Positions 7,780-52,764 of a DNA stretch of 64,000 bases are shown here, piece after piece; positions within the stretch are counted from its first letter, which is position 1, and each line of letters opens with the position of its first letter. Origin of the DNA: Escherichia coli (GTDB lineage Bacteria; Pseudomonadota; Gammaproteobacteria; Enterobacterales; Enterobacteriaceae). The stretch lies in NCBI RefSeq assembly GCF_002854065.1, contig NZ_CP024151.1. One strand, 5' to 3'. A program made the position numbers and the translations under genes. The notes under the pieces were generated by a model that saw only the letters and a program-made list of their open reading frames with translations, was not told where the DNA came from and ran no database searches.

Positions 7780-7890
7780 TTCTAGTCGCCAAACTTGAAG
7801 AAGATTATCGGGGTTTTCGCTTTTCTGGCTCCTGTAAATCCACATCAGAACCAGTTCCCTGCCACCTTACGGCGTGGCCAGCCACAAAAT
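7780..7890 (+). ncRNA. copA: Putative CopA/CopT antisense copy-number control region
   Basis: Located in the repA leader just downstream of copB, opposite strand to repA; contains CGCCAA and GC-rich hairpin-capable sequence I associate with R1/R100 CopA/CopT. Exact ends and strand not verifiable without alignment. Confidence 0.35.
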
Positions 7891-7947
7891 TCCTTAAACG
7901 ATCAGCAATCTACCACTCACTCCTGAGATAAGCAAGAATGTGAATAT

Positions 7948-8205
7948 TTACGAAGTCGCTCTGCGTTTCAACTCTGATTCAATCAGTTTTTCAAGCATCT
8001 GCGCCTGAGTAATACCTTCCTCATCCGCAAGTTCACTCAGCCTGTCTTTTAACCGGGCCTGAATAACCGCATGAAAAGCCTTATGAGTGTTGCTTCTGCG
8101 AGCCAGAGAAGCTCTTTGCCTCTCTCTGGCCGGAACAGGGTTACCTTTCCGGTATGTACGCTTGGTGCCTGATGAGGAAGTCACTGCATTTTCTGTCTGC
8201 GACAT
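7948..8205 (-). CDS. copB: Replication copy-number repressor CopB (RepA2)
   Basis: 85 aa, [23 protein letters not shown]...; small basic protein immediately upstream of the repA leader, as in IncFII replicons. Confidence 0.8.
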
Positions 8206-8467
8206 CTCGCCTCCTCAATTCTCAAACAGGGATCGTTTCGCAGAGAATACTACAGTTTTTTGAAATCAGCGACTTGAAAGTTGTGACGATGATCTGTGTT
8301 GGCGCACAAATCATGTCTGATTACGACCGTTTAATGTGATTTTGATAATGAAATGACTGAAAAGCTGGAAATGCCTTAGCCAGGGTGCCGGCCCCGGGCG
8401 GGACCGGCTGTTTCTGGTATATAGGATGTCTGCCCCTGAAATACCTCACACTTCCGGAAAGCGGGGA

Positions 8468-8671
8468 CTTCCGTGCTTCGTAGGCCAGAGTTACCTGCAC
8501 CACTGTATTTCCTCTGTGAATATTCAGCTCACATAACCGTTCCCTGAATATCAGTGAAAAACACAACACCATGGCGCACACGGCGAGCAACCCGATAAGG
8601 GCATATTTCGTCATAAACTTTGACCTCTCTGCAAAGAAGAGGCTACAATCAGTAGTGTTAAGGTACTTCAT
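8468..8671 (-). CDS. srnB: Hok/Gef-family type I toxin homologue (SrnB-like)
   Basis: Translation MKYLNTTDCSLFFAERSKFMTKYALIGLLAVCAMVLCFSLIFRERLCELNIHRGNTVVQVTLAYEARK matches the SrnB sequence as I remember it; single TM helix plus conserved C-E-L motif. In this sequence the frame reads on to 8321 with no stop after ...EARK. Confidence 0.7.
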
Positions 8672-39536: not shown

Positions 39537-40223
39537 TTACTTAACGCTATAAAATTCACGAATTATATTTAATAGCAAATCTATTTTCCCTTTATAGATA
39601 CATGACACTCTGAATAAATCAAAGTGTTCAAAAAATTCTTTTATTTTCCGTTTAACTGGTTTAATTCGATCCTCAGATGCTCTGTCTGTAATACCCAATT
39701 CTCTGGCAATTGTTGCATGACCAACACCCAGCATATAAAAAGAGAAAACAAGCAATGTCCCGGGGGAAAGATCATTCCATATCGTTAATTTATCAGAAGT
39801 ATTTGTATTACTTCCACTCTGACTTAACGCAAAAAATGGATAATCAGGAAACGGATTAATTTGCCATAAAACAACAGATTCGTCATTATAAAAAGAAACA
39901 TTCTCCATCCTTATCTGATAGATTTCGCCATGAAAATTAAAACGACGACAAAATGCAGAGCCATGTCCAAGAGCCTGGCATTCCAATTCAAGTGATGAAA
40001 GAAAAATTTCAACCTGCAGACGTATATAACTCTCTCCGGATAAGGGTTTATCTTCTCTGGAAAAGAGTTCAATAAAAGCCCCATTGGCATAAAGGATTTT
40101 CCGGTTTTTGTTACGGACACAAACCGGAACGGGAGAATTTCTGTAGATATTCTGAACGTTAAGGATGTACTTATTTACAGATTGACTGTTAAGTGGCCTT
40201 TCTCTACGATCCAGCGCACACAT
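39537..40223 (-). CDS. traJ: TraJ transfer operon activator
   Basis: 228 aa from [14 protein letters not shown]...; C-terminal HTH; start at 40223 preceded by GGAGG and embedded in the FinP-complementary leader. Confidence 0.85.
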
Positions 40224-40296
40224 AGGAACCTCCGTTAAGGATTCTATGGACAGTCGATGCAGGGAGTTCAGACCTCCCTGCATCGGCGATTTTCAG
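40217..40296 (+). ncRNA. finP: FinP antisense RNA (complementary to traJ 5' UTR/start)
   Basis: Two stem-loops on the plus strand opposite the traJ RBS/start: CATAGGAACCTCCGTTAAGGATTCTATG and GATGCAGGGAGTTCAGACCTCCCTGCATC followed by GGCGATTTT (intrinsic terminator). Ends approximate. Confidence 0.6.
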
Positions 40297-40413
40297 TTTC
40301 AATTTTTAACGTGGCATTAACCACGTAATTAATATACTAATTATCTGACGTATTGTCATCTTTTTGAATCATAAAAATTCTTATATTTGAACCAACTCAA
40401 ACTTCATTTTCAT

Positions 40414-40829: not shown

Positions 40830-41200
40830 TTTTATTTCATTTACTAATAGTTTGGTCTGAAAAAAGAAGAGCACCCCTAGCAGCGCCCCTAGGGGCATAC
40901 TATAAAAAAACGCACGGCGCTGCTAGGGGCGGCCCTAATATATCCAAATGTTTTTCATAAAATTTGTCAGTACTGACCCTAACAAGGGTCGCCATAGGGT
41001 CGCCATAGGGTCGTCAACGCCCCTATTTAATAATGTAAAATAAATTAAAATACATTATTTAAAACATAAGCTAATGATTCAAAAAGCAAATCAGCAAAAA
41101 CTTGTTTTTGCGTGGGGTGTGGTGCTTTTGGTGGTGAGAACCACCAACCTGTTGAGCCTTTTTGTGGAGTGGGTTAAATTATTTACGGATAAAGTCACCA
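40830..41200 (+). other. oriT: oriT (origin of transfer); nic predicted between 41120 and 41121 on the plus strand
   Basis: F-type nick-region sequence TTTGCGTGGGGTGT|GGTGCTTTTGGTGGTGAGAACCACCAAC on the plus strand; upstream direct repeats GGGTCGCCATAGGGTCGCCATAGGGTCG and inverted repeats GCACCCCTAGCAGCGCCCCTAGGGGC (TraM/TraY-site-like). Confidence 0.8.
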
Positions 41201-43261: not shown

Positions 43262-43885
43262 TCTGGTTTTCAGCCCCCATCATCTGTTGAGTTTCGGGAG
43301 CCGCGGTTTTGACGTTTTGCGGGGACCTGCCTTTTGTTCCCTCCGGTATTCACCATCACCTTTTTGAGAACCTTCGCCGCAAGGGGCATCACTGCCACGG
43401 CCGGAAACGACTGTCCGGGGGCAGACCGCAAAAGTTTTTGCCTGCTTTTGAGCAAAAAGTTTTGCGGGATGTGCATTTCACCCCTGGACTGGCGGAGACG
43501 GTTGTGGCTGTCTATGCCCCCGGCGACAGGGGCTTAAACAGGTGAATGGCACCGGACACAACAACGGGCAGGGACCCGCCGCAACGACGTGAAGCGCGGT
43601 TTGCGAAACGGCGTTGCCCCTTACATCCCGGCGGCCTTTTGCCGGGATGCCGGGAGCGCAGGCCACGGCGCGACAGAGGCGGCGCGACCGGAACGGTCGC
43701 TGCAAGCCCGGGGTTTTCACGCATCGGACCGTAGCGACAGCCCGAAACCGCGCCAGCGGGTTCGGCGGAGACTGGCAGGTGCGCCAGCAGCTGCCTGTCG
43801 GAGTCGGGTCTGACGACCGGATGCCGCCAGGCAGCCGGGAGCCGAAGGTGCGCCCGGCAGACAGGACAACACTGCAGTAGTCAGA
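43262..43885 (+). repeat. Dispersed leading-region repeat, copy 1 (Frpo/ssi-like candidate single-strand promoter)
   Basis: About 620 bp, roughly 98% identical to 48604..49220 by eye; GC-rich with many inverted repeats; non-coding despite multiple track ORFs on both strands. Confidence 0.6.
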
Positions 43886-44166
43886 ATCAGAGCAGGAAGA
43901 AAAAGAGAATAATCACAGGGAAGGTGATGTGATTTCTGACAGGCCATAACCAGAGAAGGCGGGGGAAAAGAACGGGCGCCGCAGGCGCGCGTTCATCCCC
44001 GTTCCTGAAGGGAAACGACCTTCCTGAAGTCAGGTTGTTCATGCCCGTACAACATCAGCAAGGAGAAAGGGGCTACCGGCGAACCAGCAGCCCCTTTATA
44101 AAGGCGCTTCAGTAGTCAGACCAGCATCAGTCCTGAAAAGGCGGGCCTGCGCCCGCCTCCAGGTTG

Positions 44167-44325
44167 CTACTTACCGGATTCGTAAGCCATGAAAGCCGCC
44201 ACCTCCCTGTGTCCGTCTCTGTAACGAATCTCGCACAGCGATTTTCGTGTCAGATAAGTGAATATCAACAGTGTGAGACACACGATCAACACACACCAGA
44301 CAAGGGAACTTCGTGGTAGTTTCAT
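44167..44325 (-). CDS. hok: Hok-family type I toxin (flmA/hok-like)
   Basis: Reverse translation [52 protein letters not shown], a 52-aa Hok; below the 60-aa track cut-off, found by reading the overlapping mok frame. Confidence 0.9.
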
Positions 44326-44383
44326 GGCCTTCTTCTCCTTGCGCAAAGCGCGGTAAGAGGCTATCCTGATGTGGACTAGACAT
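44171..44383 (-). CDS. mok: Mok (modulator of killing), overlapping reading frame of the hok locus
   Basis: 70-aa track ORF overlapping hok in an alternative frame and starting upstream, as in hok/mok/sok loci. Confidence 0.7.
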
Positions 44384-44400
44384 AGGGATGCCTCGTGGTG
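44325..44400 (+). ncRNA. sok: Predicted Sok-type antisense RNA
   Basis: Inferred from locus architecture (antisense to the mok translation-initiation region); no sequence-level confirmation, coordinates approximate. Confidence 0.35.
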
Positions 44401-44604
44401 GTTAATGAAAATTAACTTACTACGGGGCTATCTTCTTTCTGTCACACAACACGGCAACAAACCACCTTCACGTCATGAGGCAGAAAGCCTCAAGCGCCGG
44501 GCACATCATAGCCCATATACCTGCACGCTGACCACACTCACTTTCCCTGAAAATAATCCGCTCATTCAGACCGTTCACGGGAAATCCGTGTGATTGTTGC
44601 CGCA

Positions 44605-47832: not shown

Positions 47833-48580
<748 letters not shown>

Positions 48581-48603
48581 GATGTGCCTCCTTCTGTTGA
48601 TGT

Positions 48604-49220
48604 TTTCAGCCCCCATCATCTTTTGAGTTTCGGGAGCCGCGGTTTTGACGTTTTGCGGGGACCTGCCTTTTGTTCCCTCCGGTATTCACCATCACCTTTT
48701 TGAGAACCTTCGCCGCAAGGGGCATCACTGCCACGGACGGAAACGACTGTCCGGGGGCAGACCGCAAAAGTTTTTGCCTGCTTTTGGGCAAAAAGTTTTG
48801 CGGGATGTACATTTCACCCCTGGACTGGCGGAGACGGTTGTGGCTGTCTTTGCCCCCGGCGACAGGGGCTTAAACAGGTGAATGGCACCGGACAGAACAA
48901 CGGGCAGGGACCCGCCGCAACGACGTGAAGCGCGGTTTGCGAAACGGCGTTGCCCCTTACATCCCGGCGGTCTTTTGCCGGGATGCCAGGAGCGCAGGCC
49001 ACGGCGCGACAGAGGCGGCGCGACCGGAACGGTCGCTGCAAGCCAGGGGTTTTCACGCATCGGACCGTAGCGACAGCCCGAAACCGCGCCAGCGGGTTCG
49101 GCGGAGACTGGCAGGTGCGCCAGCAGCTGCCTGTCGGAGTCGGGCCTGACGACCGGATGCCGCCAGGCAGCCGGGAGCCGAAGGTGCGCCCGGCAGACAG
49201 GACAACACTGCAGTAGTCAG
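48604..49220 (+). repeat. Dispersed leading-region repeat, copy 2 (Frpo/ssi-like), upstream of ssb
   Basis: Near-identical to copy 1; immediately 5' (in minus-sense) of ssb, the classical position of the F Frpo element. Confidence 0.6.
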
Positions 49221-49246
49221 AATCAGAGCAGCAGGAAAAAGAAGAA

Positions 49247-49294
49247 CAGTAGCAGTAGCAGTAGCAGTAGCAGTAGCAGTAGCAGTAGCAGTAG
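49247..49294. repeat. Hexanucleotide microsatellite (CAGTAG)x8
   Basis: Perfect tandem array adjacent to repeat copy 2; the homologous positions after copies 1 and 3 lack the array. Confidence 0.9.
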
Positions 49295-49472
49295 CAGGAA
49301 CAACAACATCAGTAACAGACAAATGACAGGCATGAAGAAACAGAAGCCCCCATCAGAACGTCCGCGTAATGAAAGGGGCGGCGCGTGAGCGCGGCCCCTT
49401 TCAGCACCACCGGCGCGCGTTTTTTCCCGGCGCGGGCAGACAGGCATTTATCCTCCCGCCGGCCCTGTGTCA

Positions 49473-50036
49473 TCAGGCACGCAGACGAATAATCATCGTC
49501 GGGACATCGGTATAAGCAAACGTGCCGCGCGGCAGCTCCTCGCGGACGTCAGAAAACGGTAACAGCTTCTCCTGCTGGCGTGGTCCGTTGAGACAGACGG
49601 CGACCAGCACGCCACCCGGACGCAACAGGGAAAAGGCCCGCAGGATATGCCGGATATCCTGCCCGTGGCTGAACGGCGGATTCATGATAACCCGGCTGTA
49701 ATACTGCACCGGCTGCCATTCCATGAAGTCGCCACACTGAACCCTGACACCGTTAAAATTTTCCCGCAGATACCGGACCAGCCCGCTGTTGATTTCCACC
49801 GCATCACACATGGCCCCCGGCGCGGTATCCCGAATCGCCCGCAGTATGGCCCCGGTGCCGGCAGAGGGTTCCAGAATGTGATCACGGTTGCTGATCTCCG
49901 CCAGCATCACCAGGCGATCACAGACCGGGGCAGGAGTCACAAAAAGCTGAGATTCAGCCCGGATTTCAGCAACCGGCGCGGCGTTATCCAGCCTTGCGCG
50001 CATCAGCCGGATACGTTCTCTTAACTGACTGTGCAT
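49473..50036 (-). CDS. Small class I SAM-dependent methyltransferase (N6-adenine/N4-cytosine-type motifs)
   Basis: 187 aa; motif I ILEPSAGTGAI and motif IV VIMNPPF; substrate (DNA, RNA or protein) cannot be decided from sequence. Confidence 0.7.
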   Translation of the reverse strand: MHSQLRERIRLMRARLDNAAPVAEIRAESQLFVTPAPVCDRLVMLAEISNRDHILEPSAGTGAILRAIRDTAPGAMCDAVEINSGLVRYLRENFNGVRVQCGDFMEWQPVQYYSRVIMNPPFSHGQDIRHILRAFSLLRPGGVLVAVCLNGPRQQEKLLPFSDVREELPRGTFAYTDVPTMIIRLRA

Positions 50037-50083
50037 ATCATTATCTCCGTCATCCCCCGGGGATTTTCCCGGGGGGATATACC

Positions 50084-51445
50084 TTATTTCTGTGGGATTT
50101 CCGTGATTTTCATGTCGGAGATATACACATTCACCAGGCGGAAATTATTGTCCATTGTGCGGCGGTACCGGTATGCCCCGTGGTCTTCTGCTTCTGCCAC
50201 ACTGCGCACGGCCTTACAGTCCCGGGGCAGGGCGGCCCACTGTGCCTTTGTCATTTCCCGGAAACCTTCCCCCGGATAGTTGACTACCGGCGGACGCTTC
50301 GCGGCCTGACTGGCGACGGCAGCCTCTTCTGCCGATGGTGCTTTGTAGTCCGTGATGCGATCGGGCGTCACTTTCATCGTGCCGCTGTACCCGAGAAAAC
50401 TGTAATTTGGCGTTGTGACTGAACTCACCGCCCCGTTGCTTTTGTTCACACGGATGATGGTCAGCCACTCGCCCCGGCTGAAAACCTGTCCGCCCGGCTC
50501 AAAATCCTGTGTCCGGGTAACCACGCCGCCGCTTTCGTCCAGCATGGCACGCTCATAGATCAGGCGGTTCTGATAGTGGTTAACCCAGCGTTGTTGATGC
50601 TGAATCTGCCGTTCATGACAGCGGATCGCAATTTCGCGGGCCTGCTCCGTGGTGATGATGTCATCATCCAGGGCCGACCATAACGATCGACTTCCTTCAT
50701 ACTGGCTTTTTTCTGCCGGGCGCGGATACGTATCCAGCGGGAAACAGGCGCTGATATGGTCATGACTGCTGATGAGTTTTGCCATATTCAGATCCAGCGA
50801 TTCAGCCCGCCACATCGTCAGATATTTCTGCGACTGCGCGATGGTCTTTTCAGCCTTGCGCAAATCAGCTTCGATTTTTTTGATACGACGCCAGCGAACG
50901 TCCGGACGTTCTTTATACTTCGCGTGAAGCAGTGCCGACCGCGCCCGCTCTTCCCAGTATTCCGCACGTTCAAAGAGCATCACGGCTCGTTTCATGCCGT
51001 TTTCAATACGCTGCGCATCACGACGGGCGCGGCGTTCGCTGTGATGCCCCACAAGAATGGGCTGACCGGGCGGGATCATCGCGGCCAGTCTTTCCACTTC
51101 ATCAAGTGCCTGTGCGGATTCACTGGCCCGCTTTCCGCTGTATCCGGTAAACCGCTCCGCCCGTGCTTCCTGACGTTCAGCGAGCGTGCTGTCTTCATCC
51201 TCAATCTCTCCGGCAAGTGAGAGGAGCACGTCTTCCCGGCCCGGTGTCCAGGCTGGCGCGACAAACAGCGCCTGTTTGGGTGCCCAGCGAAAACCGGCAT
51301 CATGCACTTTTTTATACGTCTCCGGGTCGAGGCGTGACGCGGCATACAGGCGCAGTTTGTTGTCATCCGGTGAGTAGGTCGCGCGGTACATCTGCACAGG
51401 GCTGGCGGCTTCCGGGGCGGTCATGGTGATTGCTGCTAATGTCAT
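50084..51445 (-). CDS. Hypothetical protein, 453 aa (leading region)
   Basis: Long ORF with coiled-coil-like basic/acidic middle region; no motif recognised by inspection; co-directional and tightly spaced with flanking genes. Confidence 0.65.
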   Translation of the reverse strand: MTLAAITMTAPEAASPVQMYRATYSPDDNKLRLYAASRLDPETYKKVHDAGFRWAPKQALFVAPAWTPGREDVLLSLAGEIEDEDSTLAERQEARAERFTGYSGKRASESAQALDEVERLAAMIPPGQPILVGHHSERRARRDAQRIENGMKRAVMLFERAEYWEERARSALLHAKYKERPDVRWRRIKKIEADLRKAEKTIAQSQKYLTMWRAESLDLNMAKLISSHDHISACFPLDTYPRPAEKSQYEGSRSLWSALDDDIITTEQAREIAIRCHERQIQHQQRWVNHYQNRLIYERAMLDESGGVVTRTQDFEPGGQVFSRGEWLTIIRVNKSNGAVSSVTTPNYSFLGYSGTMKVTPDRITDYKAPSAEEAAVASQAAKRPPVVNYPGEGFREMTKAQWAALPRDCKAVRSVAEAEDHGAYRYRRTMDNNFRLVNVYISDMKITEIPQK

Positions 51446-51496
51446 AAAATGTTCTCCTTCCGTCTGTTGCCGCCCCTCGCGGGGCGGCTCACCTCA

Positions 51497-51727
51497 TCAG
51501 TTAAAAGCGCGTTTCAGTTCGAGTGTGCGGAGCACCTGCCCGAAGGCCGTGTTTTTCATGGCGGGGATGTGTACACCACGCCCCCGGTGAAAACTCCGGG
51601 CAATGTGTCGCCCGAAGGCTTTCAGCACGGGGTCAATTTCCGGCGCGGGGATGTCTTCGCGTCTGAAACGGGGATGACGGCGGGGCTTTACAGCCGCTGC
51701 GGAAGGTGAAACAATACTTACTGTCAT
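51497..51727 (-). CDS. Hypothetical small basic protein, 76 aa
   Basis: First ORF downstream (minus-sense) of repeat copy 3; Arg/Lys-rich. Confidence 0.45.
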   Translation of the reverse strand: MTVSIVSPSAAAVKPRRHPRFRREDIPAPEIDPVLKAFGRHIARSFHRGRGVHIPAMKNTAFGQVLRTLELKRAFN

Positions 51728-51964
51728 AAATGAAACTCCTTATGACAAATTGGTTAACAATGCCGTCAAAATTGGTTGTGCAATTCTTACGGCGTGGATT
51801 AAGCAGGTCCCTGACCTGCTTTTTTCATATCTGCGTCTGACGTTCTACGGTGTTTTCCTCCTTCTGTTCCTGCGTTCTCATTACCTGCCAGCCGGATGAC
51901 TGACAGAACAAATAAATGCATATTGCCGGAGCCTGAAATAAATCCTGATTTTTAAAGAACATCA

Positions 51965-52575
51965 CCCGTTGAGTTTCGGGAGCCGCGGTTTTGACGTTTC
52001 GCGGGAACCTGCTGCTGTATTCCCTGTGGTATGAACTTCACCCGTTTGAGAACCTTCGCCGCAAGGGGCATCACTGCCACGGCCTGACGCACCTGTCCTG
52101 GGCAGAACGCAAAATTTTTTACCGGGTTTTGGGTAAAAAATTTTGTGGGCTGTTCATTTACCCTGGACAGTCAGTGCGGCAGGTTGTGGCTGTATCAGCC
52201 CCCGGCGACAGGGACTCATACGGGTGTGTGGCACCGGCAGGCAATGAGCAGGGACCCGCCGCAACGACGGAGAGCGCGTGCGCGAAACGGCGTTGCCCCT
52301 TACATCCCGGCGGCCTTTTGCCGGGATGCCGGGAGCGCAGGCCACGGCGCGACAAGGGTGGCGCGACCGGAACGGTCGCTGCAAGCCCGGGGTTTTCACG
52401 CATCGGACCGTAGCGACAGCCCGAAACCGCGCCAGCGGGTTCGGCGGAGACTGGCGGGTGCGCCAGCAGCTGCCTGTCGGAGTCGGGCCTGACGACCGGA
52501 TGCCGCCAGGCAGCCGGGAGCCGAAGGTGCGCCCGGCAGACAGAACAACACTGCAGTAGTCAGAATCAGAGCAGC
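51965..52575 (+). repeat. Dispersed leading-region repeat, copy 3 (Frpo/ssi-like), 5' half diverged
   Basis: 3' about 330 bp near-identical to copies 1 and 2 (CCCGCCGCAACGAC...GCAGTAGTCAGAATCAGAGCAG); 5' half recognisably related but diverged. Confidence 0.6.
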
Positions 52576-52764
52576 AGATAAAGGAACAACAACATCAGGA
52601 ACAGTTCCATAACATAAGAAAGAAACACTCCTGAGTCAGACACATCACAGACGGGAAGGGTAACGGGCGACGCGCCAGCGTGGCCCGCTTCCCTTCCGGC
52701 AGGCGTCAGCCTGCCAGGGGTTTTCGCGCGGACTGACAGGCGGCCTCCACCGCCTGCCCCTGTA

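Follow-up and report, generated by a model that had tools for sequence, protein, structure and literature searches.

Hydrophobic micro-ORFs beside the Frpo promoter modules of an IncF leading region as probable translation artefacts of a purine-rich spacer

Class-1 single-stranded-DNA promoters of the Frpo/ssi type (ssp1) have been described in plasmid F and in ColIb-P9 (Masai & Arai 1997; Bates 1999; Couturier 2023; Samuel 2024; Wen 2025), where they drive the early "zygotic" expression of ssb, psiB and neighbouring genes. In the literature, transcription from single-stranded DNA only has been shown for F Frpo1 and Frpo2, F Frpo1 being an experimentally characterised promoter. The F ssiD and ColIb-P9 ssi sequences form the reference Frpo/ssi set listed by Samuel et al. 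(2024), and a published Frpo-acrIIA4 construct used a 290-nt Frpo fragment adjoining the gene. Here we compare with these systems a stretch of 64,000 nt of Escherichia coli DNA (NZ_CP024151.1; hereafter the window), in which an earlier note had pointed to short, extremely hydrophobic minus-strand ORFs ending inside the conserved tail of a long repeat. Two readings had been offered, namely that these micro-ORFs are by-products of purine-rich plus-strand sequence, or that they encode small membrane peptides, either type I toxin-like or leader peptides coupling upstream translation to the hairpin. We conclude that they are very probably translation artefacts of a non-coding, purine-rich, slippage-prone spacer and not genes.

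Promoter modules of the leading region

Between 40 and 58 kb the window covers the leading region of a conjugative IncF plasmid. When 901 nt around the micro-ORFs were used as a query, more than 5,000 plasmid records matched, several of them at 100% identity; for the most part these are conjugative MOBF/MPF_F plasmids from Escherichia, Klebsiella, Salmonella and Shigella. In pECO-824 the annotated neighbours share the minus strand and comprise psiB, a ParB-like gene, a DUF905 gene, ssb, a class I SAM methyltransferase gene, a DUF3560 gene, antirestriction genes and hok. Rfam identifies FinP and the traJ leader at 40217-40326 and, at the gathering threshold over 40-58 kb, sok at 44323-44499. 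Taken together with the annotation of the neighbours, FinP and the traJ leader therefore place oriT near 41 kb, with the leading genes read toward it, as in F. Short tandem repeats (AGCACCCCTAGC, AGGGTCGCCAT and TAAAATAAAT) are found at 40870-41057, between the traJ/FinP region and an SLT transglycosylase gene, which is the expected oriT region. By the transfer geometry of F given in the literature, the plus strand of the window corresponds to the transferred T-strand and is the template for the leading genes. The repeats and their parts are as follows.

43266-43902, plus strand: Frpo module copy 1, a direct repeat of about 640 nt.
48602-49238, plus strand: Frpo module copy 2, a direct repeat of about 640 nt.
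51948-52581, plus strand: Frpo module copy 3, a direct repeat of about 640 nt, its promoter half 67% identical to the other copies and its D1 half 97%.
48627-48950, plus strand: putative Frpo/ssi class-1 promoter hairpin of module 2, about 320 nt (-100.7 kcal/mol, z = -8.6), directly upstream of ssb (ATG at 48580).
48956-49205, plus strand: second structured domain, "D1", of module 2 (copies 1 and 3 at 43620-43869 and 52299-52548), 97-98% identical among the three copies.
49215..49345, plus strand: purine-rich linker at the distal edge of module 2, about 70-80% A+G, unpaired in the MFE fold.

By their sequence, predicted hairpin and location, we assign all three repeats to the Frpo/ssi class-1 single-stranded-DNA promoter modules. 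The gene-proximal half of the repeat corresponds to F ssiD, whose counterpart in the window lies at approximately 48610-48960, and to ColIb-P9 ssi1-3. A search with a shared sequence pattern finds the window copies as well as F and further plasmids of enterobacteria, and the flanks of ColIb-P9 ssi2 and ssi3 align with the repeat modules. A simple consensus scan of 48400-49600 for sigma-70 hexamers gave no promoter-like site.

D1 is strongly structured as single-stranded DNA in the predicted fold, is found also at ColIb-P9 ssi2 and ssi3, and is better conserved across the copies than the promoter hairpin (67% in copy 3). The micro-ORFs stop at its outer edge. Another sequence type of D1 is present in F and in five of the sampled IncF plasmids (L010, L011 and L014-L016). 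No description of a function for D1 was found in the Frpo and leading-region literature searched. It seems that Frpo modules are larger than the published 290-350 nt, and that beyond the promoter hairpin they include D1, conserved and structured, and then a purine-rich tail without structure.

In pEntH10407 (L009, 4256-5923) a group II intron (ltrA) lies inside D1 of the ssb-proximal module, leaving beside the methyltransferase operon just the final ~35 nt of D1 plus the purine-rich tail. Plasmid F is without the DUF3560-methyltransferase operon (7839-8643 of F against 48581-52764 of the window), and its Frpo2 is the upstream flank of window copy 3 joined to the ssb-proximal promoter; this hybrid flank is the expected outcome of a deletion via recombination between two Frpo copies. 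Downstream of copy 3, a match to Rfam RF02875 (AS-pc01, antisense to pHK01_035) above the gathering score occupies 51722-51824 on the plus strand, opposite the 5′ end of a small gene. Lastly, enterobacterial Frpo-type sequence near-identical to the window occurs on two contigs of the Streptomyces morookaense DSM 40503 assembly (L017 and L018), where it is most likely contamination.

Micro-ORFs and the spacer they are read from

The micro-ORFs and the elements around them are listed below.

49223..49333, minus strand: 36-codon hydrophobic micro-ORF of copy 2, MPVICLLLMLLFL(L)16FFFFLLL*, judged a non-coding by-product.
49223..49447, minus strand: 74-aa ATG ORF that holds the copy-2 micro-ORF as its C-terminal half, a lineage-specific fusion via a 1-nt frameshift.
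52566..52610, minus strand: 14-codon micro-ORF of copy 3, MELFLMLLFLYLLL*, the tail of a 111-aa ATG ORF, within the module-3 purine-rich linker (~52558-52640).
43887..44042, minus strand: 51-aa ATG ORF, the copy-1 counterpart, with the hydrophobic tail ..VIILFFFLL*, at the module-1 purine-rich linker (~43879-43960).
49247..49297, no strand assigned: (CAGTAG)8.5, a perfect hexanucleotide microsatellite (VNTR) called by TRF; its minus strand reads CTA-CTG and gives poly-Leu.
49372..49401, minus strand: G+C-rich terminator-like hairpin of 14 bp downstream of the methyltransferase gene, from sequence and fold.

All three frames end at the conserved CTGCTCTGA, as the earlier note had observed for copies 2 and 3. 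The two ATG-started micro-ORFs that it described at copies 2 and 3 do exist, but had been placed one base (49224-49334) and ten bases (52576..52620) away from their true positions, and each forms the end of a longer ATG ORF, of 74 aa and 111 aa respectively. At copy 1 it had recorded the hydrophobic tail with no ATG in the frame; the tail is present and there is no ATG nearby, but an ATG 51 codons upstream opens the frame. An internal ATG (..CTG ATG TTG TTG TTC..) is kept in copies 2 and 3. No Shine-Dalgarno (SD) sequence precedes either the copy-2 ATG at 49333 or this conserved internal ATG.

As ORFs, the micro-ORFs are no more than is expected by chance. In the 892-nt non-coding interval from the ssb start to the methyltransferase stop (48581-49472), 5 ORFs of 36 codons or more start with ATG, compared with 4.1 ± 1.8 in shuffles, and at the composition of the tract the probability of 36 stop-free codons is 0.43. 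Moreover, the repeat is free of stops in five of its six frames, namely the three of the minus strand (poly-Leu, Tyr-Cys and Thr-Ala) and two of the plus strand. A Pfam search of four ORFs returned no match. The 74-aa ORF is annotated by PGAP as a hypothetical protein in near-identical plasmids; over the repeat, PGAP places two overlapping "hypothetical proteins" on the same strand in different frames, and the calls in other plasmids differ, some being on the opposite strand. Similar calls are made within the promoter hairpin itself, where a short ORF (L002, 5478-5693; L015, 5371-5577; ~48606-48812 in the window) is labelled 'single-stranded DNA-binding protein' in some GenBank records, and a single promoter module may carry as many as four overlapping hypothetical ORFs in the annotation. 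The ORF annotations inside the Frpo hairpin are probably annotation artefacts.

The hydrophobicity of the copy-2 micro-ORF exceeds what composition alone would give, with L, F, I, M and V making up 94% of its residues against 43% ± 7% in mononucleotide shuffles. It is so extreme because the triplet-based (CTACTG)n reads as Leu-Leu in one of three phases, with T at the second codon position. Perfect tandem units and copy-number polymorphism between close relatives show the hexamer array to be an ordinary VNTR. Among 17 sampled sequences it ranges from 1.5 to 10.5 units, the Leu run following it from ~5 to 21 residues, and the remaining indels in the tract among the sampled IncF relatives are slippage of AAC or ATC triplets. 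Repeat number looks neutral. The frame from the repeat to the TGA is retained in all sampled IncF relatives; this retention is uninformative on coding, because all indels there are slippage of 3- or 6-nt units. We also considered whether the triplet periodicity, all indels being multiples of 3, is itself a sign of coding, and rejected it: the repeats derive from trinucleotides ((YAG)n, (GAA)n, (AAC)n and (ATC)n), so that slippage keeps phase, and start codons and upstream frame are lost.

The spacer stands out by its composition and its predicted lack of structure. In local folding predictions of the T-strand over 41-58 kb, the 49215-49345 linker region is the least structured 100-nt window, the copy-3 tract the second least (52540-52639) and the copy-1 tract the eighth. 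At least 80% purine over 40 nt is reached in four places in the 64 kb, two of which are the copy-1 and copy-2 edges, and the copy-3 tract reaches 75% in windows of the same size. At the equivalent place, the F Frpo2 edge carries another and longer repeat, of (GAGGAAGAA) type, purine makes up 73-75% of the ColIb-P9 tails, and in Raoultella, K. michiganensis, K. pneumoniae and others the sequence at equal offset is purine-rich but unrelated. As far as these comparisons go, it is the composition of the tract that is conserved, not its sequence.

A contribution of the tract to folding of the promoter hairpin was tried and rejected, since the pair probability is 0.89 whether the tract is native, random, reversed or deleted. 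For D1, predicted integrity with the native tract is 0.77, 0.58 and 0.76 in the three copies, against means of 0.64, 0.49 and 0.62 with random tracts. The native tract beats 36 of 40 random ones in each of the three copies, 4/40 per copy matching it. These are folding predictions with modest effect sizes, ~10% of random sequences equalling the native one, and are suggestive, not strong, of the tract protecting the adjacent D1 fold.

We propose that this spacer, at the promoter-distal edge of each Frpo/ssi class-1 module, would be the source of the micro-ORFs, which read its complement. An A/G-rich spacer on the transferred (plus) strand leaves the mRNA-sense strand C/T-rich, and therefore stops are rare and middle-T codons (Leu, Phe) common. 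In copy 2 the trinucleotide-based (CAGTAG)n would have been expanded by replication slippage, one of its three phases giving poly-Leu, and the shared CTGCTCTGA would merely be the first in-frame stop, met where the conserved structured part of the repeat starts. The spacer is probably kept for its composition: a homopurine-rich stretch may be unable to pair with itself, or to pair easily with its neighbours. It would thus stay single-stranded on the incoming T-strand, letting the adjacent promoter module fold independently, and may separate the folded promoter module from the hairpins that end the upstream operon.

Relatives and alternative readings

Relatives were sampled as 16 IncF plasmids spanning the identity range (L001-L016), plasmid F (L028, NC_002483.1) and ColIb-P9 (L029), together with 11 loci of other genomes in which the promoter core recurs (L017-L027). 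Only the window-type allele, carried by the window and L001-L004, has the ATG of the 36-codon ORF. In the other IncF samples (L005-L016), 12 of 12, AGA (Arg) replaces the ATG at 49333. The segment 49296-49372 is matched in 4,031 plasmids, with 881 at 99% identity or more and 288 at 95-99%; the other 71% fall in the identity classes of the samples that lack the ATG, so that the window-type lineage accounts for about 22-29% of the plasmids. The copy-1 frame has no ATG in L008, and in L010 and F Frpo1 it is 18 codons long, again without an ATG. In ColIb-P9 ssi2 the homologous ...AATCAGAACAACAG edge (..TTCTGA end) is retained, with an ORF of only 6 codons, and the Raoultella, Klebsiella, Pantoea and Edwardsiella homologues have no ORF, start or stop in common. 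Among the replacements seen in relatives are Leu to Pro (twice), Leu to Trp, Phe to Leu and, at the start codon, Met to Arg. The earlier note had suggested comparing conservation of the reading frame with that of the nucleotide sequence in homologues. By this comparison, neither the start codon nor the upstream frame is conserved.

The most extended of the other readings holds that the purine-rich unstructured tail is a selected, undescribed third part of class-1 single-stranded-DNA promoter modules, insulating the folded promoter and its companion domain from adjoining sequence on the incoming strand or loading Rho onto read-through RNA, and that in the window lineage the 1-nt deletion that fuses an upstream SD-ATG has produced a newborn poly-Leu microprotein with a length set by the VNTR. 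We give it as a tentative reading and a rather improbable one. Two of its parts can also be considered separately. The pyrimidine-rich RNA of the tract could be a Rho-loading (rut-like) site, or the purine-pyrimidine tract could impede transcription, so that read-through stops before the promoter module. The tract is untranslated, predicted to be unstructured and just past the weak terminator of the upstream operon, and in F its RNA would be almost G-free and UC/CC-rich, which fits rut far better. In the window, however, the excess of C over G in the RNA sense is modest (27% vs 18%) and the CUACUG repeat has no YC dinucleotides, and we consider such a role quite unlikely. It is compatible with the spacer explanation, not opposed to it.

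The other part concerns the SD-ATG of the 74-aa ORF (GGGAGGATAA-ATG), in which GGGAGG stands 4 nt before the ATG at 49447; the element (GGGAGGATAAATG; 49400-49447, minus strand) is 26 nt past the methyltransferase stop. In 12 of the 16 relatives (L005-L016) this SD-ATG opens a 15-codon ORF, MPVCPRREKTARRWR, that stops shortly before the G+C hairpin. The ORF reaches 71-78 codons in the window-type lineage alone (the window and L001-L004), where a 1-nt deletion has fused it to the poly-Leu frame. The 15-codon peptide shows several non-synonymous changes among relatives and so may also be non-coding. One reading is that in this lineage alone the deletion joined a conserved SD-ATG to the poly-Leu frame and that a newborn protein of 71-78 aa with a variable hydrophobic C-terminus is actually made, the well-placed SD and an allele carried by ~22-29% of plasmids speaking for it. 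However, the 74-aa ORF runs straight through the 14-bp hairpin at 49372-49401, and translation must cross this structure, which probably ends the transcript; a strict terminator scan of 48400-49600 did not call the hairpin, its U-tract being weak. The Arg/Gly/Pro-rich N-terminal half resembles translated GC-rich spacer, the sister lineages are without the fusion and Pfam holds no matching family. That such a protein is made is decidedly unlikely.

A membrane peptide of type I toxin kind, its hydrophobic tail ending in the conserved repeat, has some attraction, given that the predicted peptides are extremely hydrophobic and of transmembrane-like length, that a genuine type I toxin locus (hok/sok) lies nearby, and that the F Frpo2 junction also has an ATG-started hydrophobic ORF. 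Neither the conserved peptide and length nor the conserved start and ribosome-binding site of a type I toxin was found, however. Length follows a VNTR of 1.5-10.5 units (~5-21 Leu), Leu changes to Pro or Trp, and ColIb-P9 and the distant homologues have no common ORF. There is AGA in place of the start in L005-L016 and no SD, and the frame is startless or closed at L008, L010, F Frpo1 and ColIb-P9. A scan of 40-58 kb for described Rfam antisense RNA families gave none at the junctions, with sok only at 44323-44499, and no Pfam family matched. Moreover, whichever mRNA-sense frame of such tracts is translated, in the distant homologues too, the product is hydrophobic or rich in Ser and Pro. We therefore regard this reading as very unlikely, and the same grade applies to the micro-ORFs as peptide genes of any kind.

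The last reading, that the micro-ORFs are leader peptides coupling upstream translation to folding of the promoter-hairpin RNA or DNA, has in its favour that they stop exactly at the start of conserved structured sequence, and is scarcely credible given where they lie and how they vary. F ssiD and the published Frpo fragment, from which the promoter boundary was taken, are directly upstream of the gene, and transcription proceeds toward lower coordinates. The micro-ORFs are 350-700 nt upstream of this gene-proximal 290-350-nt promoter element and outside it; therefore they are not on the promoter's transcript, and would be transcribed only by read-through from the upstream operon, past the terminator-like hairpin. 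Thus they are not in the 5′ leader of a regulated transcript, nor do the sampled relatives and F share an in-frame ORF with a conserved start. In addition, the promoter acts, according to the literature, as single-stranded DNA, which leaves coupling to translation without an obvious role.

The spacer artefact is thus the reading we retain. The first of the two original suggestions, by-products of purine-rich plus-strand sequence, is borne out by ORF counts that match shuffles, by five open frames out of six and by the loss of start and frame in relatives. The second, small membrane peptides of toxin or leader type, fails on a start and upstream frame that are not conserved and on ORFs outside the promoter fragment.

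Significance and comparison with described systems

Were the peptides real, the establishment region of the main resistance-plasmid family in E. coli would have gained small membrane peptides. On the evidence above, the proposed peptides are instead artefacts of composition; as a genetic element the micro-ORFs are not a real feature, and the finding is an ordinary one. Several "hypothetical proteins" that annotation pipelines place over Frpo modules, these included, are very probably spurious calls, to be left out of any count of leading-region genes. Mildly new is only the extent of the modules, which continue past the published promoter with a conserved second domain and a purine-rich tail that lacks structure, and of this no mention was found in the literature searched; neither purine-rich tracts nor small ORFs tied to Frpo or the leading region are reported there, a codon-usage preprint being silent on both. 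This larger extent may matter for deleting or transplanting Frpo promoters.

Four kinds of described system can be set beside the locus. The G+C-rich non-coding DNA in which spurious ORFs of the AntiFam type are called offers a likeness to the ORFs themselves, with overlapping 'hypothetical protein' calls in several frames, on both strands and varying by plasmid; the likeness rests on this annotation pattern. Type I toxins (Hok, Ldr, TisB, Ibs, ShoB) share with the predicted peptides shortness and strong hydrophobicity, and hok/sok is 5 kb away, whereas the window ORFs are without a conserved start or SD, a conserved peptide or an Rfam antisense RNA, and take their length from a variable repeat. 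The hexamer array behaves as bacterial simple-sequence repeats or VNTRs do, being perfect, head-to-tail and variable in copy number between otherwise near-identical plasmids, as from replication slippage. It differs from contingency loci in that it lies in non-coding DNA and gives no sign of switching a gene on or off. Lastly, the repeats themselves match F ssiD and the ColIb-P9 ssi elements, and like the Frpo/ssi class-1 promoters of these plasmids each is predicted to fold on the transferred strand into a ~320-nt hairpin and stands ahead of an operon of the leading region (ssb-psiB and others). They differ in that the published elements are ~290-350 nt beside the gene, and the window modules add to this a 250-nt structured domain and a purine-rich tail.
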